DNA of 64,000 nt from a virus. The position numbers and the translations under genes were made by a program. Below are positions 3,345-33,333 of this stretch, piece by piece; the stretch's first letter is position 1; every line of letters starts with the position of its first letter. The stretch lies in IMG/VR virus record IMGVR_UViG_3300007535_000003, positions 33,238 to 97,237 of that record; one strand, 5' to 3'. The notes beneath the pieces are model-generated. The model was not told the origin of the DNA, did not search any database, and was given only the letters and a program-made list of their open reading frames with translations.

Positions 3345-3645
3345 TAAGTACTGATAACTAAATTGAGTACTATCAGATCTGAAAGTTTAGTCCAAATTTG
3401 GACTGTCTGAAGTATGTTGGCATATCCCCAAATAAAGCCATATAAGCTGTTTATAGTCTAAATAGACCTGTAGTACCTAAACTACCCTATGAAGGCTTTA
3501 AATCGCTTAAAAAGGGCATTTATGGGCAAATGAGGGAGAGTGTTATAGGTCGTCTAAACTCACGCCTCAATCAGCCCTAATTTCACATAATCAATAACCC
3601 AACCTATATAATACTAATAGCTATAAACCACAAAAATATACAACT

Positions 3646-4029
3646 ATGAATAAAATTGAATTAATTGGAAGAGGTACAATAATTAACATTGATGATATTA
3701 ATTATTGTATTGAATCTCACAGCCATAATGACCCTGAATTAACAAGCTCAGTCTATCCCAGTAGGTACCTTTGCGTATTTGTCATTAAAGATGGGATAAA
3801 GTTTAGGATAGGATATATTAACTACAACGAACTAACCTGGTTTGATACACAAGCAAGGGAACAACTTATAGAGCATCCTAGTGATATAAAACAAGTTACT
3901 GTTATTAATGTCTTAAATTCGGTAGAGTTTAGTGTAAAAAGACTCCACACACCTTTACATGAATTTGATAGGCTGGATGAAGAGAACAGGGAAATGGTAT
4001 TTGAAAGATTAGTTGACACTGAACTTTAA
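3646..4029 (+). CDS. hypothetical early protein
   Basis: 127-aa ORF preceded by the AACCACAAA motif. Confidence 0.7.
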   Translation: MNKIELIGRGTIINIDDINYCIESHSHNDPELTSSVYPSRYLCVFVIKDGIKFRIGYINYNELTWFDTQAREQLIEHPSDIKQVTVINVLNSVEFSVKRLHTPLHEFDRLDEENREMVFERLVDTEL

Positions 4030-4040
4030 ACCACAAAACT

Positions 4041-4301
4041 ATGAAAATAATAAAAATAGTATTTAGGGTATTGTTAGTACCTATAATAATAGCAGCTGAA
4101 TTAGCAATCACAGCTGTATGTGGGTGGGGTATAGGGAAACTAATCCTATACTTTACACATGTAGATGAAATAGATTTGTTAGCATGCGACAGTTCAGTCC
4201 TTGAAACTATGTACTTAGGGGTAATCATTATAGTAGCATTTGTAACAGTATGTTTACTATTATATATAATATACTTATTAATTAAAGAATTTATTATATA
4301 A
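4041..4301 (+). CDS. two-TM membrane protein
   Basis: Two hydrophobic stretches; motif-led start. Confidence 0.7.
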   Translation: MKIIKIVFRVLLVPIIIAAELAITAVCGWGIGKLILYFTHVDEIDLLACDSSVLETMYLGVIIIVAFVTVCLLLYIIYLLIKEFII

Positions 4302-4314
4302 TCAAATCAATAGT

Positions 4315-4521
4315 ATGACTAGAGAGCAAATAACATTAGTAATAAAGAAACGTGAGGATTTATTAGAACAAAATCCTAATTTAAGGAAGGGTCAAGCATT
4401 CTACCTAATGTTAAGTACATACTTCTATCACAAAGCAATGGAAATTACAGCTACAAAATTTGACCCATTCTATGAAGATAAGAAGATTCCCAAGTGTATT
4501 AACTATCTTTTAAATCATTAA
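4315..4521 (+). CDS. hypothetical protein
   Basis: 68 aa with an LRKGQAF...FDPFY pattern typical of small phage proteins. Confidence 0.7.
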   Translation: MTREQITLVIKKREDLLEQNPNLRKGQAFYLMLSTYFYHKAMEITATKFDPFYEDKKIPKCINYLLNH

Positions 4522-4549
4522 ATACTATTAACTACAAAACTATAAGATT

Positions 4550-5071
4550 ATGAAGATTTACAGATTTAAAACTAAGGAAGAACTCATGAAAGAGTTTGGT
4601 TCTAATTTTAGAACTAAAGCACGTTTTAACAGTGAAGGTGAGATGGATTACCTATTCGGTACACCAGTGACAAAAGACTTCTATGAAGAAGTTGCAAACC
4701 AAGGTATTGCTATGATAGACAATGTAAATCCACATGCTTATCCCACCTTGTGGTCTGTCAACAATAAAATGTTAACCTGGAACTATAAACCTAAAAGGGG
4801 GGAAATAGTTGTAATTACACATTACCACAGTGGTAATATTGAAGGTACAGTTACTAAAATATTGGAAGCAAAATGGTACAGTGATTTAATATTATGTGAA
4901 GCCTTTACTGGTGATCCAATTAGAAATTTAAGACACCTAAACAAGCCTGCTTGGTTTGAAGCAGAGTATAGACCTGCTACTGAAGAAGAGAAAGAATTCT
5001 ACAGACTTGCTAAGAAAAAGGGGCGAGTTGCCATAGTAGGGCAAAGTAGTGGAAAACCACACATCTGTTAA
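4550..5071 (+). CDS. hypothetical protein
   Basis: 173 aa, YRFKTKEE N-terminus and RPATEEE motif. Confidence 0.75.
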   Translation: MKIYRFKTKEELMKEFGSNFRTKARFNSEGEMDYLFGTPVTKDFYEEVANQGIAMIDNVNPHAYPTLWSVNNKMLTWNYKPKRGEIVVITHYHSGNIEGTVTKILEAKWYSDLILCEAFTGDPIRNLRHLNKPAWFEAEYRPATEEEKEFYRLAKKKGRVAIVGQSSGKPHIC

Positions 5072-5126
5072 ACTAAACCACAAAGCTACAAAGTTATAAA
5101 TAAGTTAAATTAAACCACAAAATAAA

Positions 5127-5369
5127 GTGATTGAAAAAGGATTAGAAAGACTTAATAATCGTAAAGCCAAGCTTCTCAGGGATAGGGAAGCAATCAGTAC
5201 AGGTAGAATAGTATTTAGGAATAATAGGTTGTTAAACAACAAAAACTACAACCCATTGTTTGCAGAAGAATACAGATTCTCCCTCATCAGCTACATTGAC
5301 AAGAAAGTAGTGGAAATTGATGAAGAGATTGCAAAAAGTGAAGCTCCCCAGTTAGGTATGGGGAGCTGA
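5127..5369 (+). CDS. hypothetical protein
   Basis: 80 aa, GTG start right after the motif. Confidence 0.6.
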   Translation: MIEKGLERLNNRKAKLLRDREAISTGRIVFRNNRLLNNKNYNPLFAEEYRFSLISYIDKKVVEIDEEIAKSEAPQLGMGS

Positions 5370-5393
5370 TTATTAACCACAAAATATAGATGT

Positions 5394-5798
5394 ATGACAT
5401 CAAAAGCATTAGTATGGTTAAATTCCAACAAAGTACAGATTGGGGATCGAGTATTATTACTACCTGACGTACTCAAGGACAACCCTACAGAAGAATTAGC
5501 AGGACATGCTGTAGTAATTACTGGGTTAATACCTACAAAGGATTATAAGACAGCCTATGTAGAAGTAGGTAAACGTCTTCCTATTGGTGTAATAGGCTAT
5601 TGCCAACCTAATTATTATAGGCTGCTTAAAGCTACTCATTACAAGGTTAAGCAAACAGGTACAAAATGGCCTAAGTCAACTAATTGGCACAAGATCACAG
5701 ATTTCTTTGTGATGCTAAAAGGTTGGGAATACCAATTTGCTATCAAGGAAGATGGTTATATGATCCCATTGCAAACCAGGAAGTGGTGGAGATTATGA
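5394..5798 (+). CDS. hypothetical protein
   Basis: 134-aa motif-led ORF. Confidence 0.65.
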   Translation: MTSKALVWLNSNKVQIGDRVLLLPDVLKDNPTEELAGHAVVITGLIPTKDYKTAYVEVGKRLPIGVIGYCQPNYYRLLKATHYKVKQTGTKWPKSTNWHKITDFFVMLKGWEYQFAIKEDGYMIPLQTRKWWRL

Positions 5799-6124
5799 TA
5801 AGTAGGTGGCAAATATCCGGCAAGACCTTGGATAATAAGCTACTAGTCTCGTTTTTAAAGAAAGAGAGTTTATTAAATAGGTTTATTGATCTAACATACT
5901 TCTTTGCTTCTAAAACATCTAAGTTAAAAGCATCAAAGAGTGACCCATTTACGAGTACTAACAGCCCATTAAATATAAACGGGGATCTAAATGCTATATC
6001 ACAAGCATTTCCATGGGCAGCATCAATCGAAAGGGAACTATTCTGGTGTTCTATTGACAAAAAGTACAGAAAGTATGTAAAAACTAAAAAAAGGGAGGCT
6101 AAATATGAAAACCAGGTTAGATAG
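5795..6124 (+). CDS. hypothetical protein (likely start at ATG 5795 rather than 5684)
   Basis: ATGA overlap with the upstream stop codon. Confidence 0.55.
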   Translation: MISRWQISGKTLDNKLLVSFLKKESLLNRFIDLTYFFASKTSKLKASKSDPFTSTNSPLNINGDLNAISQAFPWAASIERELFWCSIDKKYRKYVKTKKREAKYENQVR

Positions 6125-6287
6125 AGCTAAAACTAGGCTTTCAGGTCAGCTGAATAGGCCTAAGTCCAAAAATATGCGAACTCGTGGAAAGAAAGTAATT
6201 GATAAGCGAGTACCAAGGGATGAAGAGCGTATAGTTGAACTGCAACAACGGATTAGCAGGCTAAAACGAGAGCAACATACGCAGTAG
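6105..6287 (+). CDS. small basic hypothetical protein
   Basis: 60 aa, Arg/Lys-rich, GGGAGG upstream. Confidence 0.55.
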   Translation: MKTRLDRAKTRLSGQLNRPKSKNMRTRGKKVIDKRVPRDEERIVELQQRISRLKREQHTQ

Positions 6288-6591
6288 AACCACAAACAAC
6301 AGAACTGTAGTAACCCATGTAGGATTAAGCCAGATGGTTGCTGCACAAACAGTAGGTCTTTAAATAAAACTATACAGACAACACCATAAATAGTTGTCAC
6401 CCCAAAGAAAGGGTATGAATGCTGAAGTACAGCTGATACAGCTCTTTCCCTACTGTTTTCCAATAACAGGTATTTTTTTGAGGACTTTTGTCCACCAGAT
6501 TATAACAAATAGTTTAAATACCGTAATTATGAGAGTACTTAAGCCACCTTAATTAACAACAACTAAAATTTATTTATTATTATTTTAGAGA

Positions 6592-6635
6592 TTAAATTAT
6601 TAAAACTAAACAGTTAAATTATTAAAACTAAACAG
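6592..6635. repeat. 22-bp tandem duplication
   Basis: TTAAATTATTAAAACTAAACAG x2. Confidence 0.9.
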
Positions 6636-6720
6636 GTAGATCTATTCTGACAGATACGCGCTCATTGAGGGTGGGATCTACCTGTTTATCTTATACAATA
6701 AACCACAAAAATTAAGTAAG

Positions 6721-7341
6721 ATGAAAAAAAACTTTAACAAAGAAATAGACATACTTAGACAGCTTCTCATATATAAGGAAAACTGTCAGTACGAAATGAG
6801 CTTAAGACAGCCGATAGGTGACGGACCTATGGCGCTTGTAAGTAGAGCCAGGTATGTTACAGGGTATATGTCTACAAGGTGGTTTGATCTATTTGACATA
6901 TACAAAGAGTTACAACTAACAGTTGGTTGGAATTTAAGTGATTTATTAAGTAAAAGCATAATTGACTTAGGATGTGGAACAGGATTACTTGTAGACTTAT
7001 TCAGCATAATATTTAAGAAAACTTATGGAATAGAAGCTGATTGGAATCTTTGTAAGATAGCTACAATAATGAGGCCTCATCTAGAAATATACAATGGATA
7101 TGTACAGGAAAGAGTAGACTTAATACTCAGGTTAGATCCTGACATTATTTATGCTTTTAATATCACAGGTGAACCAAGAGAAACATTTGATGAGTTATTC
7201 AGGAAGATGCGCAAGGGACAAGTATTTGTACATCTAGGGGGCTCAACAGAGATAGAAGAGTTAATAGATGAACACAAGTTTAATACATCTAACAAAGAGG
7301 AAGATAGGCAATCAGCCAGAGTACTGATAGCTATTAAATAA
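6721..7341 (+). CDS. class I SAM-dependent methyltransferase
   Basis: IIDLGCGTG motif I followed by YGIE. Confidence 0.8.
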   Translation: MKKNFNKEIDILRQLLIYKENCQYEMSLRQPIGDGPMALVSRARYVTGYMSTRWFDLFDIYKELQLTVGWNLSDLLSKSIIDLGCGTGLLVDLFSIIFKKTYGIEADWNLCKIATIMRPHLEIYNGYVQERVDLILRLDPDIIYAFNITGEPRETFDELFRKMRKGQVFVHLGGSTEIEELIDEHKFNTSNKEEDRQSARVLIAIK

Positions 7342-7359
7342 AACCACAAAATTAAAAAT

Positions 7360-7488
7360 ATGGATTGGGAACAATCAAGAGACGAAGATAGAGAATTTGA
7401 TCCTAATGATGGACAAGATATCTACGGATGCATACTAGGAGCAATTATGTGGATAGCACTAATAGCACTAGCGATTTTCTGTAGATAA
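7360..7488 (+). CDS. 42-aa acidic, C-terminal-TM microprotein
   Basis: MDWEQSRDEDREFDPNDGQDIYGCILGAIMWIALIALAIFCR*, motif-led. Confidence 0.55.
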   Translation: MDWEQSRDEDREFDPNDGQDIYGCILGAIMWIALIALAIFCR

Positions 7489-7608
7489 ACCACAAAAATG
7501 AAATTGTTAAAAATATAGAGAGATCTTGGAGCCCAATCAGGGCTATCGGCGACGACACGGTGGTAACCAGCCCATACAGCAGTCGTACTTCAGGTCTCCC
7601 TAACTTAT

Positions 7609-7728
7609 GGTCCGTTCGTCTAGTGGTAGGACGCCGAGCTGTTAATACTTTATACATGCACTAGCTATGTTAGAGTATCAACCATGGTTTGCCCCACGGA
7701 AACGGAGGTTCGACTCCTCCACGGACTG
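7609..7728 (+). ncRNA. tRNA-like RNA with an expanded anticodon arm
   Basis: Acceptor GGTCCGT/ACGGACT, D-arm GTCT-AGTGGT-AGGAC, T-arm GGAGG-TTCGACT-CCTCC; about 50 extra nt in the anticodon arm. Confidence 0.75.
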
Positions 7729-7733
7729 CTGTT

Positions 7734-7926
7734 AGCCATATAGCTCAAAAGTGTTACACTCAAGTTCCTAGGAATCGGCTGTAACCCCCAAGGATATGCA
7801 GAGGAGAATGGAACTTATTTGGACTTAAAATCCAATCCATTCTAGGCCACCTCACGCAGAGTCCGAGTAGCGGAAGAGCCCCTAATAAATTATAGGGAGA
7901 TCTGGGTTCGAGTCCCAGTATGGCTA
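7734..7926 (+). ncRNA. tRNA-like RNA with a ~120-nt insert in the D-loop
   Basis: Acceptor AGCCATA/TATGGCT, D-stem GCTC/GAGC, CCCTA/TAGGG arm, T-arm CTGGG-TTCGAGT-CCCAG. Confidence 0.75.
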
Positions 7927-7961
7927 CTATTTTTATTTACAAACCACAAAAATTAAATATT

Positions 7962-8129
7962 ATGTCAGCATTAATTGCATTCCTTGTAACAATGGCATTC
8001 CTAAGTTTAATGGGCTATGCCTTATTACCTTACGGGACTAAGGAGGAAGCCTCAACGAGAAAAGTAGTAGGTATTGTAGCAATTTTAGCTACAGTAGTAA
8101 TACTAATATTAACTTTAATAATATCCTAA
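7962..8129 (+). CDS. two-TM small membrane protein
   Basis: MSALIAFLV... start follows the AACCACAAA motif; two hydrophobic helices. Confidence 0.65.
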   Translation: MSALIAFLVTMAFLSLMGYALLPYGTKEEASTRKVVGIVAILATVVILILTLIIS

Positions 8130-8393: not shown

Positions 8394-8837
8394 ATGTGGA
8401 AATCTAACTCAAAGCAAAGCAAAGACAAAATAAGTAAGGGCAGTTTAGTAATTATTGACATGCCCGACTTTATTGGAGAATATGTACCTTCAATAAGTAA
8501 GGTAGCGTGTAGCTACAAAGAAAAGATGCTACATTTCTCTAATGTTAGCAATGCTTTTGGTAGCTTATTTGGTGAAGAACACCATTTAATAGAAGTACCA
8601 AGAGCAGTCATACTCTATAACAAGACACATTTTCTTAAGAGTGTATTAGAGCTATCTGAAGCATATAAAGAAGATAGCTTAGATTCTTTATTCTTTTACG
8701 GTCGTAAAATAGTACTACCAGTCCATGAGGGATACTTAATGCCGGTAAGTAAAATAAAGGATCCACACAAAAGAGGACTATGTTATAGAGAATGGGAAAT
8801 GTTAAAGACTAAGGGATATAGTAACCTTATAACCTAA
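8394..8837 (+). CDS. hypothetical protein
   Basis: 147-aa ORF in operon. Confidence 0.65.
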   Translation: MWKSNSKQSKDKISKGSLVIIDMPDFIGEYVPSISKVACSYKEKMLHFSNVSNAFGSLFGEEHHLIEVPRAVILYNKTHFLKSVLELSEAYKEDSLDSLFFYGRKIVLPVHEGYLMPVSKIKDPHKRGLCYREWEMLKTKGYSNLIT

Positions 8838-8898
8838 CTTAACTAACAAACGATTTACTTACGCTGCTAGCTAGGGCTTTAGCGGACTCGGGTTCGAT

Positions 8899-9519
8899 CA
8901 AAAGGTCGAAGTTAAACTGGGTGAATTCAGGGAAACCTAAGTCACAATGATAAGGCAACCCTGAGCCAAGCCCTTAAGAGGGAAGGTGCAGAGACTACCT
9001 GAATACAGGCTAGAGCGCCCAGCACTTAAAAGTGAAGAGATAGTCCGATACTCCTGAGAAATTAGGAGAAGAAGCGAGATGTAAATTCTTGACGTTTTGA
9101 TAAGGTTTCTTTTGTATATTTACCATTACGAGGTGTTATACTCTTCAATTCGTTAAGTATCATATCTATACGTCTACGCTTCTTGGGATGTCTGGAATTT
9201 ATGTAAGATAGTACGTTTATACATTTAGGTAAATAAGTATACCTCAGCTCATAATTAGTAAAATCACCTGATTTTTTAGTACAAATGAATCCATTATGAC
9301 CTGTTTCAAGTTTAATAAATTTTTCTATTTCCACAAGTAGGTCATATTCGTTATTACTAAAAGAAATAACAGGTGATCTTTCGCAATTCTTATGTAAACG
9401 TAAAAATGTTATCGTGCCGTCAGCATCAAAGAAACCTGTAATATATTCCCAACCCATATTTTTATTGAATATACGGACGCAGGTTTGAAATGTTACTGTT
9501 CCAGATGTTTTAACTATTG
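8899..9519 (+). mobile_element. group I intron in the tmRNA T-loop
   Basis: P1 with U.G at the splice site (TTCGAT/GTCGAA); P GAATTCAGGGAAAC 8923; Q AACCCTGAGCCAAG 8957; R GTGCAGAGACTA 8986; S AAGAGATAGTCC 9035; P3 CTGGGTG/CGCCCAG; extra P7.1 hairpin (IA-like); terminal G9519. Confidence 0.92.
9062..9457 (-). CDS. single-motif LAGLIDADG homing endonuclease, antisense within the intron
   Basis: N-terminal YITGFFDADGTI motif, 131 aa, located in the P9 region of the intron. Confidence 0.9.
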   Translation of the reverse strand: MGWEYITGFFDADGTITFLRLHKNCERSPVISFSNNEYDLLVEIEKFIKLETGHNGFICTKKSGDFTNYELRYTYLPKCINVLSYINSRHPKKRRRIDMILNELKSITPRNGKYTKETLSKRQEFTSRFFS

Positions 9520-10552: not shown

Positions 10553-11611
10553 ATGAACAAATACAATGCTTCTGCATCGGAATTATTTGATGCAGCCGAA
10601 TACTTTTACAAAATGGCTGTCCGTTTTGAAGACAGGTATTGGAATCATGGCAACAACCAAAGTGATATGAGTGCCATGCATATGTACAAACTGAAAGCTG
10701 CTGAAGCTGAAAGCTACGCTGAATTGCTTATTCAAGAGGGGTTAAGCAATACCCTAGGATTTGGTCCTGAATGGATTAAAAAGAATTTTGTAGCTCTTAA
10801 TCCAGCTAATATTAAAAGTGAGGTAAGTAAAGCTAAAGAAGCTGGTAAAAGTGAAATCCCTAATGCTGAAATAGTTAATGATGAAGCTGAATTCATTAGC
10901 AAAAAAGTAGGTATGAAATTACGGGAAGAAGAAGCAGCTGTACTTAGCAAAAAAAGGCAAATACGTGAAAGTGAACCTCCATTTGTAACTAGCTTACGTT
11001 CTGAAATTATAGAACTACTTGAAAAAGGTCTAAGGGGCGAATTGGTTACATTATTAACTAAGTTCCATTTTAGGGATGTTGAATATCCTGCAGAAAGAGC
11101 TTACAGGTTTATCAACTTAGTTAAAGAGCAATTCAATATATTAGAACCCTCAAGTTCTTTAAAAGAAGCTAAAACAGCCAGAAGGGTAGCTGAACTAAAA
11201 ACTCAGCTGCTTAATAAAAAGAGAAGAGAATTCAGGAAAAAGTACACTAAAAAGCATGGTAAATTGCCTAAGCCCGAATTACTCAATGCTATACAACTAA
11301 GCGATCAGGAAATAGCTCCTTTAGTTGAAAAAGCTAATAAATGGGGCACAGAAAAGATACCTGTAAATACCTATGTTTATGCTAGATACACGGTACATAA
11401 TTGTAATGGTGTAGATGTAGAAGAGGGCTATGCCAAAAGACATAAGAATAAGCCTAATGAGCTATGGCATAGCAATAGGTTTGTATGCTTCTTAAGTGAT
11501 GTAGAGAAGTGGAGACCTATCTACGATATCATTCACAACAAAGAAAGGGAGATGAAGTGGTATTTCAATAACAACCCTGTATCAGGCAAATATCAAAGAA
11601 ATAAAGTTTAA
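10553..11611 (+). CDS. hypothetical protein
   Basis: 352-aa ORF. Confidence 0.75.
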   Translation: MNKYNASASELFDAAEYFYKMAVRFEDRYWNHGNNQSDMSAMHMYKLKAAEAESYAELLIQEGLSNTLGFGPEWIKKNFVALNPANIKSEVSKAKEAGKSEIPNAEIVNDEAEFISKKVGMKLREEEAAVLSKKRQIRESEPPFVTSLRSEIIELLEKGLRGELVTLLTKFHFRDVEYPAERAYRFINLVKEQFNILEPSSSLKEAKTARRVAELKTQLLNKKRREFRKKYTKKHGKLPKPELLNAIQLSDQEIAPLVEKANKWGTEKIPVNTYVYARYTVHNCNGVDVEEGYAKRHKNKPNELWHSNRFVCFLSDVEKWRPIYDIIHNKEREMKWYFNNNPVSGKYQRNKV

Positions 11612-11626
11612 CCTAAGTAACATATT

Positions 11627-12151
11627 ATGTCAAAAAGTAAAAAAGAAAGAAACACTTCACACGACGCAATAGAGTTAATACTCGTAAGCGTGCGTATCAA
11701 CGAGCTCAGGAGCTTAAGGTTACGGTTATTTAACGACATTTATTTAATACGTTCAACCTGTCAAAACTCCAAGTTTACAAGAGCTTCTAGTACTATCAAC
11801 AATATGAGTTTACTCATAAGCGAGATAGATGCTAGAAGAAAAAGCTTAACAAGGAGAAGTAGATCCTTGATGGTAAGAATGATTAAGCTAACCAATAAAA
11901 CATTTCAAGAAAAACCATCAGAGCTAGTGCCCTTACACAATAAAGATATTGAAACTGGGTATGTAGAACTGACGGAAGTAACTGAACAAGGTGAACTTAT
12001 ACCCCATTTACTACTACTTGATAGTGGTAAAATAGAACCAGCTAACAATGTAAGAGCTAAACAGATCATGGCAAGAGGTCCCAGCTATACCGGGTTCACC
12101 TTCGATAAAATAAAAGCCTTGGCTATAATGTCTGAAACCTGGCCAAGGTAG
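11627..12151 (+). CDS. hypothetical protein
   Basis: 174-aa ORF. Confidence 0.7.
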   Translation: MSKSKKERNTSHDAIELILVSVRINELRSLRLRLFNDIYLIRSTCQNSKFTRASSTINNMSLLISEIDARRKSLTRRSRSLMVRMIKLTNKTFQEKPSELVPLHNKDIETGYVELTEVTEQGELIPHLLLLDSGKIEPANNVRAKQIMARGPSYTGFTFDKIKALAIMSETWPR

Positions 12152-12215
12152 CACATAATATTTTTTGTGGTTTGAGTCGATTTAGGTGCGAGCCTATTTC
12201 GGCTTCAATTTTTGT
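12152..12215 (+). ncRNA. candidate antisense sRNA to the AACCACAAA/AUG leaders
   Basis: CATAATATTTTTTGTGGTTTG followed by a GCGA-tetraloop hairpin and a T-rich tail. Confidence 0.55.
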
Positions 12216-13450
12216 AGCAGTTCTTGAGAGAACCTTCACCCTACCGCCTTTGGATTCGGCAATGTTGGGAATACCAAGGACAATGCCTACTACCTATTAG
12301 CTACTCAATATCTACAAAACTACTCTCCTTATGAAGTATCCTAGGAAGATGGGTTCCAATTATTGATTTAAGCGCACTCTGAGGAACTGGCAGACCCGAT
12401 GGATACATTAAGGTAAATAGGTCTAACGCAACCCATGGTCAAATCCGTACTCTTAAGTGTGTGGGTATTACCCTTAAGAGCTTATGCATGCTCGCACTTC
12501 CCTTTACGAAAAGGTTGAACTAAGAAGTAACTGAATACGGGGCTGTATATACTGTATACAGTGGGGCTGGAAACACCAGAAGACTACGATGATGCTACCT
12601 AGTAAATAGGCCAAGTGAACACTTAACTTTGAATTAAGTTAGTAACGGGGGGTCCAAATTCCTTAGAGTCGTTGTATAGACCTTGAGTACCGAGTACAGA
12701 GTAGATAATTTATCCCCCAGTAAAGTGGTGTAGTTCAAGCCGCAGTAGCGAAATATGAACTGTCGTCTGTGATTTCGGCTGGGGTAAGAGGAGGAGGGAT
12801 GGATACGTGTGCTTCACCGTTTGTATGGTAAGAAGCTACATGTTATACGCCCTAGCCAAGATCTGAAGCATGAATCGTCAAGTTGGGGCTTAGGAATAAG
12901 TTTGATAAATAGCCTGCGATAGGTCGCAATCCCTATCAGTTTCAACCATCGAGTAATGTGGAGGATACATACATCAATGAGGCGGTAATGCCGCCCAGTA
13001 TCATGGTAGTGCGCTTTATAACTGATGCAGCCATTTCCAGTTATATTTGCTTGGAGCTACTTATGATGCGATACTCTGTAGGACAGAGGGTCTTTAAACT
13101 TAGCAGGTAACCGTAAGTGTGGAGAACAAAGTTAAGTCCCTAGAGTAGAACAGACCTCTAACAGTTCTACAAAATTCAAATAGTAAACAAGGGTTTACAA
13201 CGGAGCCGTTAGGCTGTTGTATAATATATACCCAAATAAATGTCAGTGTATTTCTTGCCTAACCACAGCAAGAGACTGACTAATAGTGACTATAAGAGTA
13301 TTAAGCTAAGGAGGTTGTGAGTGGATGTGGTTCATGAGGTACCAAGTGCATTTTAAAAGCTTGGGTGGATGACTTCATTGAATCATAGCTTAATATTAAG
13401 TAAGGAAATAGGACTGGGGCTTAAGAAAGTCCCAGCTCCCCAGTCCTTTT
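12216..13450 (+). ncRNA. candidate very large structured ncRNA (or cluster of ncRNAs)
   Basis: No ORF >=60 aa in any frame, higher GC, many hairpins and long-range complements, ends in a terminator. Confidence 0.65.
13410..13450 (+). terminator. intrinsic terminator
   Basis: AGGACTGGGG/CCCCAGTCCT stem followed by TTT. Confidence 0.75.
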
Positions 13451-13463
13451 AAACTATTAAAAA

Positions 13464-13778
13464 ATGAAGGTAAAAAAGTATAAATATCTAATACCTATAA
13501 TAAGCATAAAAGCTGAAGGTACCTTAGTACATTTGATACAGCGCAATATTCTGTACAAAGCTAAAAAAGTACTAGGGATCAAAATACCAATAGAAAAGAT
13601 CTTTCAAAAAGACAGGGGGATCTCAGCTTGGAAAGAGACAGCGGGTCATAAGCAGACTAAATGGAGAATAGTCTACATAAAAGATGAAGATAATAACATC
13701 AGATTAGGGCCCGTTATTCAAGACAAGAAACTTTTAAAGTTTTTAAACAAGATTACTAACCAAAATTATGCAAAATGA
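13464..13778 (+). CDS. hypothetical basic protein
   Basis: 104-aa ORF. Confidence 0.6.
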   Translation: MKVKKYKYLIPIISIKAEGTLVHLIQRNILYKAKKVLGIKIPIEKIFQKDRGISAWKETAGHKQTKWRIVYIKDEDNNIRLGPVIQDKKLLKFLNKITNQNYAK

Positions 13779-14275
13779 AAAGAGGAGCTAGCAAACCCAG
13801 TAGTGTTTTATCGCTTGGAGAAATAGTATATTTTCTACAAGAAGAGGTTGTAGACAATGACAACAAGTTGATAAGGACTACCTGGTATGATCCAAAGGGT
13901 ATAAGAGTAGTATCTGTTGTCTTAGACGGCAACAAAGTTGTAGTAAATCGAAAAGATATCGTCGAGTCTATTATGTCTAAAGGAGAGATAGAAGGAGACC
14001 ATAAGATATTTGAAATGTCTTTCGATATCAACAAAGAATCGATTTACACAGACAAAGATTCCGCAATAGAAGATGCGTGGGATCTCAATGAGAAGTCCCT
14101 GGAACAAAACAGGTATGCAGTATCTGAAAAGAAAAAGGAGTTATCTGACCTTGAAGAAAAAGTTAAAATGGTCAAAGTTCAGATAGATGCTGGAAATAAA
14201 GTATCTCAATTTCTCGAAGATTGGCTTGAAAAATTAGGTGATGGGGAAACCTACACTGATGATCAAGCTGTTTAA
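13775..14275 (+). CDS. hypothetical protein with C-terminal coiled coil
   Basis: 166-aa ORF. Confidence 0.7.
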   Translation: MKRGASKPSSVLSLGEIVYFLQEEVVDNDNKLIRTTWYDPKGIRVVSVVLDGNKVVVNRKDIVESIMSKGEIEGDHKIFEMSFDINKESIYTDKDSAIEDAWDLNEKSLEQNRYAVSEKKKELSDLEEKVKMVKVQIDAGNKVSQFLEDWLEKLGDGETYTDDQAV

Positions 14276-14312: not shown

Positions 14313-14735
14313 ATGGCTAAAAGCAAAAAGAAAGTACAAGATGAAGTACAGGAACAAGAAACTGCAACTACAGTGGAAAATGAAGCTACAGAAGCTTCTG
14401 GTTCAGACAACACCCAAACTGCTAACGCTGAGGATGATACGGTCTTTGGTACGGTAGTATGGAACGACAAAAAGAAGAAAGGATTTGGTTTTATCCAGAT
14501 GGATGGTGAAAAGCAAGAAGAAGGTAATGATATCTTTATGCACCATTCCCAAATTATGGCTTACAAAGATGGTAAGGTACCAAATCTTGAAGCTGGTGAT
14601 AGGGTATCCTTTATACTTGTAGATCCCCCGGAGAGCAATAGCAAACAAAAACCTATTGCTTCTGAAGTAGTTCTCGAGGAAAAAGCTCCCAAAGAGGATA
14701 AACCCAAAGAGGAAAGCAAATCTGAAAATAAGTAG
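14313..14735 (+). CDS. cold-shock domain (CSD) protein with acidic extensions
   Basis: GTVVWND.KKKGFGFI (RNP1), DIFMHHSQI (RNP2), LEAGDRVSF. Confidence 0.9.
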   Translation: MAKSKKKVQDEVQEQETATTVENEATEASGSDNTQTANAEDDTVFGTVVWNDKKKKGFGFIQMDGEKQEEGNDIFMHHSQIMAYKDGKVPNLEAGDRVSFILVDPPESNSKQKPIASEVVLEEKAPKEDKPKEESKSENK

Positions 14736-32295: not shown

Positions 32296-33333
32296 ATGAA
32301 CGAGAAGCAATATTATAAAGAAAAGGGGGTATCTAACTCCTCGTTAAATTGGTTTTTATATTCCCCCGCTTATTTTAGGAAAAGATTAGATGAAGAGATA
32401 GCTGAAGAGCAGAAATCATGGCAATCTATCGGTCGTAAGGTGCATATGGCTATACTAGAACCAGAAGAATTTGAAAAAAACTATATATATTTAGAATATC
32501 AACAGCCTAAAAGCCCACAACAAAAACAATTCTGCGAAGAGTATGTTAAAGATAGGCGCAATAGACCTAAAGCTACTAAAATATCTAGTAAGATTAAAGC
32601 TTATGGAAAAGCTTACAATACTAAAGCTATCAAGGAAGAAGATGTGAAGAAAAAGGCTGAAAGTCTACAAAGAAAGCTTAAGGATTATATAAACTACTTA
32701 GAGAAATCTAAGGAATACAAAGATATATTGACTAAAGCTGAATGGAATCTAATTAACCGTTTGAAAGAAGCCGTATTTGAGCATAAAATAGCTACAGAGG
32801 TGTTGGGTATGGGTGGGAGTAATGAGCTCTTTAAAAGCCAAATTTCGGCCTATAGTGAGCTTCCTATATTTTGGAAGTACCCAACTGATATTGATGTAGA
32901 CTGTAAGTCAATGGTTGACAGGCTTGTTATAGATAAAGAGAATAAAACAATAAAGTTAATCGACTTGAAAACAACTAGTAATATAGGTAAATTTAGCGAC
33001 TCATTTAATGACTATAGTTACTATAGACAGCTAGCTTTTTACTGGCTAGCAGTTTATTACATGGCTAAGAATGATAGCTCAATACCTGACATACGTGATT
33101 ATAAGAAAGAAACATATATTATAGCTCTACAGAAAAGGGACATACCAGAGTGTAGAGTTTACAAGATACCAGAGCACAAACTTAACGAGGGATTAGCAGA
33201 GATAGAGAGAATATTACCAGAAATTGCATGGCATATAGAAAATGACAAATGGTTCCATACTAAAGAGTACTACACAGGAAACGGAATCGAAAAACTATTT
33301 AAACATGATGAACAACATGCAAACGTTAAGTAA
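32296..33333 (+). CDS. PD-(D/E)XK exonuclease (RecE/exonuclease VIII-like)
   Basis: VSNSSL, G..VH..ILE, CKSMVDRL, IDLKTT, YYRQLAFY. Confidence 0.85.
   Translation: MNEKQYYKEKGVSNSSLNWFLYSPAYFRKRLDEEIAEEQKSWQSIGRKVHMAILEPEEFEKNYIYLEYQQPKSPQQKQFCEEYVKDRRNRPKATKISSKIKAYGKAYNTKAIKEEDVKKKAESLQRKLKDYINYLEKSKEYKDILTKAEWNLINRLKEAVFEHKIATEVLGMGGSNELFKSQISAYSELPIFWKYPTDIDVDCKSMVDRLVIDKENKTIKLIDLKTTSNIGKFSDSFNDYSYYRQLAFYWLAVYYMAKNDSSIPDIRDYKKETYIIALQKRDIPECRVYKIPEHKLNEGLAEIERILPEIAWHIENDKWFHTKEYYTGNGIEKLFKHDEQHANVK

Follow-up and report, generated by a model that had tools for sequence, protein, structure and literature searches.

A reversed copy of an early-region motif joined to a covarying hairpin, a candidate regulatory element in a crAss-like soil phage

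Results

The DNA analyzed here, referred to as the window, comprises 64,000 nucleotides and corresponds to bases 33238 to 97237 of a 97,237-bp phage genome that was assembled from soil metagenomes. The phage encodes a family-A DNA polymerase that is about 30% identical to the polymerases of crAss-like phages, and its early and replication genes are oriented rightward and its structural genes leftward. The minus strand carries a giant open reading frame (ORF) of 7,427 aa (window positions 36258-58541) with a DFDID sequence at residue 3391. In the crAss-like phage phi14:2, the early genes are transcribed by a virion RNA polymerase (RNAP), of which DFDID is the catalytic signature (bioRxiv 10.1101/2020.03.07.982082), and since the giant ORF contains DFDID, the early genes of the present phage are probably read by an injected virion RNAP. 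This signature of crAss-like phages is here situated within a giant fused protein. The gene leaders of the window lack Shine-Dalgarno sequences, and a TAAATTTG box precedes a gene read leftward (32956-33315 in genome coordinates); both features fit a Bacteroidota host, and Bacteroidota are the probable hosts of this crAss-like phage. Further features identified in the window were a group I intron (8774-9068; Rfam, 97 bits), a LAGLIDADG-like ORF just downstream of the intron on the opposite, minus strand (9062-9457), and a gene for a cold-shock-domain (CSD) protein (14313-14735; Pfam CSD, 2.9e-10). The latter lies 850 nt downstream of the ORF-free region described below, and its product is a candidate single-strand nucleic acid binder for the motif, or the inverted copy of it, that are the subject of this work.

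The element of interest is located in the 3' flank of a conserved plus-strand gene that encodes a protein of 174 aa (11627-12151). This gene is real: two database proteins, P0002 (53% identical) and P0003 (49% identical), align with its product over the whole length; another homologue, encoded by the related contig L001, is 30% identical. Searches of the 174-aa protein against Pfam and PHROG retrieved no match, and neither did a fold search with its AF2 model (pLDDT 82). The idea that this protein might be the binder of the motif was discarded, as there was no fold match.

The sequence CATAATATTTTTTGTGGTTTG (12154-12174, plus strand) starts 3 nt after the stop codon of this gene (12149-12151) and is the reverse complement of a motif of the early intergenic spacers together with its start context. 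Its core, TTTGTGGTT (12164-12172), is an inverted copy of the motif AACCACAAA, and we refer to the entire segment as the anti-motif. It is followed by a plus-strand hairpin (12174-12205) formed by a 7-bp outer stem (12174-12180/12199-12205; GAGTCGA/TCGGCTT) and a 5-bp inner stem (12183-12187/12192-12196; TAGGT/GCCTA), capped by a GCGA tetraloop of the GNRA type (12188-12191), and then by the tail CAATTTTTG (12206-12214), which is terminator-like in the window phage. The coordinates and sequences that a first-pass annotation had given for the stop codon, the anti-motif, the hairpin, and the T-rich tail were all confirmed. Three stem pairs are G-U on the plus strand, so that the hairpin is much more stable as a plus-strand RNA (-19.5 kcal/mol, z -3.5) than as a minus-strand RNA (-8.6 kcal/mol). 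The left part of the element (12153-12164) is complementary in 11 of 12 positions to the start of its own upstream gene (11619-11630; ATATTATGT), a match that is not kept in L001.

Transcription of the element from the plus strand, as assumed initially, is supported by its proximity to the stop codon of the conserved 174-aa gene on that strand, from which no terminator separates it. Since the anti-motif lies between this stop codon and the first hairpin, it is expected to be cotranscribed with the 174-aa gene, and, being part of the upstream mRNA, it does not need a promoter of its own. A TATAAT at 12124 had been pointed out; it belongs to a class of sigma-70-like matches that are found at chance frequency (50, versus 49.6 expected from shuffled sequences) and does not support a separate promoter.

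The motif AACCACAAA is present in 12 exact copies in the window, versus 0.40 ± 0.65 expected, and none of 100 shuffled sequences reached 12 copies, which corresponds to a 30-fold enrichment. The copies are clustered in the early region: ten are intergenic and on the plus strand (3626-7950), one is the single inverted copy, at 12164-12172, and one is intragenic (23657); there is none in the remaining 33 kb of the genome. The motif (AAACCACAAAA) is rich in A and C and has no Shine-Dalgarno-like core. Most forward copies sit directly 3' of a stop codon. The initial description of the motif as the leader of about ten early genes was accurate as to the ten plus-strand copies, but only seven of these precede a plausible start, at a distance of 1 to 11 nt. 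(i) The seven copies with a start are those at 3626-3634 (ATG 11 nt downstream), 4029-4037 (overlapping the upstream stop codon, ATG 3 nt downstream), 5113-5121 (GTG 5 nt downstream), 5375-5383 (9-bp hairpin upstream, ATG 10 nt downstream), 6701-6709 (ATG 11 nt downstream), and 7342-7350 (adjoining a stop codon, ATG 9 nt downstream), as well as the copy that, with its leader and ATG, occupies 7940-7964 and precedes the gene of a 55-aa protein with two transmembrane segments (7962-8129). (ii) No ORF follows the remaining three, namely, those at 5076-5084 (the next copy begins 28 nt later), 6288-6296 (adjoining a stop codon and followed by about 430 ORF-free nt; this copy is also an exact mosaic junction in run X5), and 7488-7496 (followed by a 6-codon frame and then by tRNA-like genes). 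The first of these tRNA-like genes (7609-7728; Rfam tRNA, 44.6 bits; the match is spread across 120 nt, which points to an insertion of about 49 nt) was not called by ARAGORN, and the second element (7734-7926) has a T-arm near 7900-7925. In addition, gene 4550 is preceded by a degenerate copy, AACTACAAA, with a C-to-U change. Promoter hexamers at the forward copies were not consistent, and only 2 to 3 of the 10 copies have a hairpin upstream. The 55-aa protein, with its two hydrophobic segments, is a membrane protein, and the start region of its gene is the best predicted partner of the anti-motif.

The element was then compared with that of L001, an IMG/VR contig of 22,956 bp that was the one closer relative revealed by a polymerase search and whose PolA is 69% identical; a second contig, L049, represents the same phage as L001 (99.9% identity). 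In L001, the sequence CAATATTTTTGTGGTTT is located directly after the stop codon of the homologous gene, and 15 of 15 nt (ATATTTTTGTGGTTT) are identical to the anti-motif of the window, whereas the flanks are otherwise unalignable. This conservation extends past the core to ATAT. A hairpin follows directly (outer stem GGTCAAT/ATTGACC, inner stem GGGGG/CCCCC). Compared with the hairpin of the window, it has four double-compensatory pairs and a single compatible change, and its GGTGCGA apex is identical. The anti-motif and the hairpin are hence kept as a unit in this relative. The L001 hairpin is not followed by a T-run, nor is the complement of the AUG kept, and given the missing T-run, the conserved role is not that of an intrinsic terminator. 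The small RNA with a T-rich tail that had been envisaged thus has its hairpin and tail in the window, but the tail has no counterpart in L001. Neither the L001 nor the L049 contig includes the early region; the L001 contig contains an identical motif in one intergenic forward copy (4987), which follows a terminator hairpin plus T5, in two intragenic copies, and in the inverted copy.

More distant relatives provided no further instances. No analogous anti-motif was found in G2 or G3, no GGTGCGA-type hairpin was found elsewhere in the relatives, and a search with the 20-nt element pattern retrieved L001 only, plus chance matches. Searches with the 174-aa or 352-aa proteins revealed no further relatives in the viral, metagenome, and genome contig sets. 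The 94-kb relative G2 (L031-L035) possesses a leader of its own, AAATCAAAATG, before many rightward genes, often after terminator hairpins, and no reversed copy of this leader was seen at the ORF-free gap of G2.

An inverted copy might also be the leader and start of a real minus-strand gene, which was one of the reservations made at the outset. The minus-strand motif indeed has an ATG (12156-12154) 7 nt downstream, resembling the forward copies in this respect. However, the frame opened by this ATG has 23 codons and lies inside the conserved plus-strand gene, and with TAG read through it reaches 83 aa at most, wholly antisense to the 174-aa gene. L001 has no ATG at the equivalent minus-strand site, and the only possible start, a TTG, opens 5 codons. 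A short, nonconserved frame that overlaps a conserved gene was rejected as a minus-strand gene, for which we see hardly any likelihood. Taken together, the 15 of 15 conserved nucleotides, the compensatory changes in the hairpin, the strand bias caused by the G-U pairs, and the absence of a conserved minus-strand ORF argue for a selected, structured plus-strand feature, with a conserved and putatively single-stranded segment beside the hairpin, in the 3' untranslated region (UTR) of the 174-aa gene that is probably functional.

Downstream of the element extends a region of 1.25 kb (12216-13463, plus strand) that is free of ORFs, has a GC content of 0.41 to 0.45, versus about 0.35, and ends in a strong hairpin (13407-13450) followed by a T-run. 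The reading of TAG as Q, table 4, and the reading of TAA as Q produced no convincing ORF in 12152-13464. Counted from the element, the ORF-free stretch of the window measures 1.3 kb and that of L001 0.9 kb. Gaps of 0.9 to 1.4 kb occur at the same map position, 6 to 9 kb upstream of PolA, in L006, L015, L042, L052, L056, and G2; only some of them share sequence with one another and none with the window, and neither blastn nor nhmmer detected homology of the ORF-free region of the window or of L001 to the gaps of the relatives. Rfam searches of 11500-14000 (E ≤ 10) and of the equivalent gaps of six relatives returned no family, and the folding strand asymmetry across the gap was the same as in the coding flanks. 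A hairpin of the type CTTGC...GCAAG (13250-13275) exposes the loop AACCACA (13261), which is complementary to the anti-motif core; as an internal partner of the anti-motif, it was dismissed because the match covers no more than 7 nt and the L001 gap lacks it.

In both phages, the element directly adjoins the beginning of the ORF-free region, a position that would also be expected of a host-type promoter for this region. Bacteroidota sigma-A promoters have a -7 box TAnnTTTG and a TTTG at -33, about 19 to 21 bp upstream, and the plus strand of the inverted copy could be read as the -7 box; the transcript would then begin with the base of the hairpin, the hairpin would serve as a protective 5' stem-loop, and the anti-motif would lie outside the RNA. 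The L001 sequence TATTTTTG matches this box exactly and ends at a distance of 7 nt from the hairpin, the TA that the box requires is contained in the ATAT that is conserved upstream of the T-run, and the TAAATTTG box before gene 32956-33315 suggests a Bacteroidota host. Furthermore, the long noncoding RNAs of phi14:2 have a time course different from that of the early genes (bioRxiv 10.1101/2020.03.07.982082). However, the window sequence, TATTTTTTG, has one extra T, which puts the spacing off by one; neither the window nor L001 has a TTTG or TTG at -33; and the positionally equivalent gaps of the relatives have no such box. Moreover, a strain variant joins the gap at 12197 to another left flank, so that the gap may occur without the anti-motif, and the ten copies in opposite orientation are left unexplained, since only 4 of the 10 form a minus-strand TAnnTTTG and would thus be antisense promoters. 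We therefore regard a host-type promoter as unlikely.

The strain variant just mentioned is part of a larger mosaic. DNA contigs from other soil and salt-lake runs break their homology with the window at 3605, 4024, 6288, 7511, 11588, 12197, and 13381, junctions that are defined by metagenome contigs with few records. All of the runs found to contain the sequence were of DNA, with no RNA run among them. The break at 6288 coincides exactly with a forward motif copy, those at 4024, 3605, and 7511 lie within about 20 nt of one, and that at 12197 lies inside the hairpin. In one contig, the ORF-free region is joined from 12197 on to another left flank, and the last 30 of the 255 unaligned bases of this flank contain no anti-motif. 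The positions of the junctions suggest that early-gene cassettes may be exchanged at the motif. The junction at 12197, together with the fact that L001 keeps the gene and the element while its ORF-free region is unalignable, links the element to the 174-aa gene, and this thin evidence from few contigs suggests that gene and element move together, the latter being the 3' UTR of the former. An invertible segment with 7940 and 12174 as inverted arms was given low weight: the contigs contained no strand-change joints, and no recombinase was identified.

These junctions bear on another explanation, according to which the element is a stabilizer or terminator of the 3' end and a recombination linker that does not pair with other RNAs, the motif being kept as a joint for cassette exchange. 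In its favor are the terminator-like combination of hairpin and T5 in the window, the mosaic junctions at or near motif copies, among which those at 11588 and 12197 flank the 174-aa gene and the anti-motif as a cassette, and the precedent of the promoter-early stem-loop (PeSL) sequences (PMC2839356, PMC4122927). Intrinsic terminators are defined by a G+C-rich hairpin that is directly followed by a U-run, with conservation of both; in the window the hairpin is followed by CAAUUUUUG, and its stem is rich in G-U pairs and separated by a 3-nt spacer from T5, and L001 has no T-run. In addition, an inverted linker could not mediate the direct-repeat exchanges of the forward copies, and 15 of 15 identical nucleotides next to a gene with 30% identity indicate that the sequence itself is selected and is no passive scar. 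A role restricted to stabilization and linkage is accordingly improbable, to a degree similar to that of the host-type promoter.

We then turned to the pairing of the anti-motif with the early transcripts. A duplex scan of the whole genome with 12152-12176 as the query placed the 7940-7964 leader first among the trans sites, at -23.0 kcal/mol, about 7 standard deviations from the mean of the background (-7.4 ± 2.2 kcal/mol). The reverse complement of the anti-motif had been described as a near-copy of this leader including its start codon, and indeed 13 plus 8 bases match around a 4-base gap, ATG included. Four other motif-bearing windows were among the top 25 (-15.2 to -15.5 kcal/mol), interspersed with chance matches. 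The expectation that motif-bearing starts would rank at the top consequently held for one leader and was not supported for the others, which amounts at most to one strong target and several with the usual strength of a seed. As a seed, the anti-motif offers 9 to 13 nt of perfect complementarity to ten spacers, and its complementarity to start regions exceeds chance; it also ranks first among the 9- to 10-mers of the gap region with complements that are found again in other parts of the genome, and the C-to-U change in the copy before gene 4550 would be tolerated by a G-U pair. Any inverted copy of a motif is by definition complementary to it, and complementarity alone is thus no evidence of RNA pairing. 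As for accessibility, the T-run is predicted to be unpaired and the UGUG to pair weakly with CACA at 12152-12155; the mean paired probability of the anti-motif is about 0.5, equal to the baseline.

Several observations speak against pairing. No ORF follows three of the ten forward copies, and some copies in L001 are intragenic, so that the motif may act at the DNA level and not as a region of translation initiation; the duplexes of about -15 kcal/mol are, with the exception of one leader, inseparable from chance; the U-tail and the complement of the AUG are absent in L001; the anti-motif is predicted to be partly paired locally; and G2 and G3 have no analogous anti-motif.

The first of these observations leads to a DNA-level site that is present in reverse, the motif being bound by a phage regulator, as is the case for stoperators, or by an RNAP, for example, the injected virion RNAP. 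The reversed site could be a leftward promoter that produces an RNA antisense to the 174-aa gene, for which the OOP RNA of phage lambda offers a likeness, or it could act as a roadblock where the gene block ends. Such a site would account for the copies at 5076, 6288, and 7488 that precede no ORF, that at 7488 preceding tRNA-like genes, and for the intragenic copies, two in L001 and one in the window (23657). It would also suit the terminator-then-promoter layout at the L001 copy 4987, the DFDID of the giant ORF, which probably marks a virion RNAP that reads early genes, and the coincidence of motif copies with strain mosaic junctions, as in PeSL promoter cassettes (PMC2839356). However, a conserved hairpin with compensatory changes has no obvious role upstream of a leftward promoter, its G-U pairs favor a plus-strand RNA, conservation extends past the core to ATAT, most forward copies have no upstream hairpin, and no common early-promoter motif was found in phi14:2 (bioRxiv 10.1101/2020.03.07.982082). 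We consider a DNA site a tentative possibility that stands slightly below RNA pairing, and DNA-level readings, which comprise a protein site, an inverted promoter, and the Bacteroidota -7 box, are about as likely as pairing.

Discussion

What is new, as judged from comparative sequence analysis, is a reversed motif copy that is fused to a covarying hairpin and kept across a deep divergence. The element is real, conserved, and of regulatory appearance, and an antisense mechanism is possible as one of two or three live options. Among these, RNA-RNA pairing of the anti-motif with motif-bearing early transcripts is the most likely mechanism, to which we assign a probability of roughly one in three; that a discrete RNA exists, that it pairs, and that pairing has a regulatory effect is what we infer. 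In this mechanism, the element would be a plus-strand RNA module in which a U- and G-rich exact complement of the early motif is joined to a GNRA-capped hairpin, placed where an early or delayed-early block ends, in the 3' UTR of its last gene, with a long ORF-free region beginning next to it on the 3' side. Once the downstream block is transcribed, the anti-motif would pair with the motif-bearing early transcripts, most strongly at the start of the 55-aa membrane protein gene (7962) and more weakly (10 to 12 bp, A/U-rich) at the other spacers. Pairing might occlude the start regions or create substrates for nucleases, so that early expression would be turned down, and it might occur either in trans, through a 3'-UTR-derived fragment with the hairpin as its end, or in cis, both partners being part of one long polycistronic RNA. 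The abundant rightward noncoding RNAs of the phi14:2 early module constitute a precedent (bioRxiv 10.1101/2020.03.07.982082). The more ambitious version, in which a segment of a 3' UTR or of the 5' end of a noncoding RNA pairs with the start-associated motif of about ten early cistrons and shuts off the early set, appears rather doubtful to us.

If true, this mechanism would represent an RNA-based shut-off of a whole early set in phages of a host phylum in which initiation is not led by Shine-Dalgarno sequences. The timing of early expression in crAss-like phages is little understood, and in phi14:2, no early-promoter motif was found and the early noncoding RNAs have no assigned function (bioRxiv 10.1101/2020.03.07.982082). 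Whichever reading holds, the element and the forward motif, which tags almost all early spacers, form a simple pair through which the transition from early to middle expression could be approached in a major group of phages.

The c4 RNA of phages P1 and P7, the OOP RNA of lambda, and the sar RNA of P22 are small phage RNAs that pair with the start region or the 3' end of a phage mRNA, and c4 is released by processing of a transcript that also contains its target. These RNAs have one target and locus-specific complementarity, whereas the predicted seed of the present element would match a motif common to about ten spacers. The stoperators of Cluster A mycobacteriophages are asymmetric sites of about 13 bp that are located in short intergenic spacers near stop codons and oriented with transcription, and they serve as repressor sites in temperate phages. 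Their layout is like that of the present motif, but the phage studied here is of a lytic type and no repressor was identified; stoperators are also mentioned in the study on start-associated sequences (SAS; PMC3203893) discussed below.

The PeSL sequences of T4-type phages are similar in that they, too, are short, conserved, and regulatory, separate small early ORFs, and lie at the joints of insertions, deletions, and replacements that distinguish strains (PMC2839356, PMC4122927). They differ in that PeSLs consist of a sigma-70 promoter and a terminator stem-loop, whereas the present motif has no promoter consensus and mostly no stem-loop; its copies thus mark module joints as PeSLs do, without a promoter and a terminator at each copy. 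The likeness to the long noncoding RNAs of phi14:2 is one of position: the rightward early/replication module of that phage has long intergenic regions that are transcribed along with the genes (bioRxiv 10.1101/2020.03.07.982082), and the present element opens a similar region, whereas no repeat and anti-repeat have been reported there.

The closest described pattern is that of the SAS of Cluster K mycobacteriophages, an asymmetric 13-bp motif that is found a few bases upstream of 10 to 20 nonstructural gene starts, in one orientation (PMC3203893). Both are short asymmetric motifs that are repeated about 10 to 20 times in the nonstructural part of the genome, within a few bases of starts, sometimes over the upstream stop codon, and nearly all in one orientation. 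The present motif has this layout, with ten intergenic plus-strand copies at 3.6 to 8.0 kb, 7 of the 10 at 1 to 11 nt from a start and none in the structural/late half, but it is not a SAS: the SAS consensus, GGGATAGGAGCCC, has a Shine-Dalgarno core to which the present motif is unrelated, and we consider it an analogue. The function of SAS was still experimentally uncharacterized in 2025 (PMC12699233), and the authors of the original study had raised the question of whether its binding partner is an RNA or a protein (PMC3203893). Four Cluster K phages have a single copy in the opposite orientation away from gene starts (PMC3203893). For SAS, there is no report of a reversed copy that is joined to a conserved hairpin and retained in a distant relative, as is the case in the phage studied here, and RNA pairing, if true, would offer the first functional explanation of the lone reversed copies in SAS-type systems (PMC3203893).
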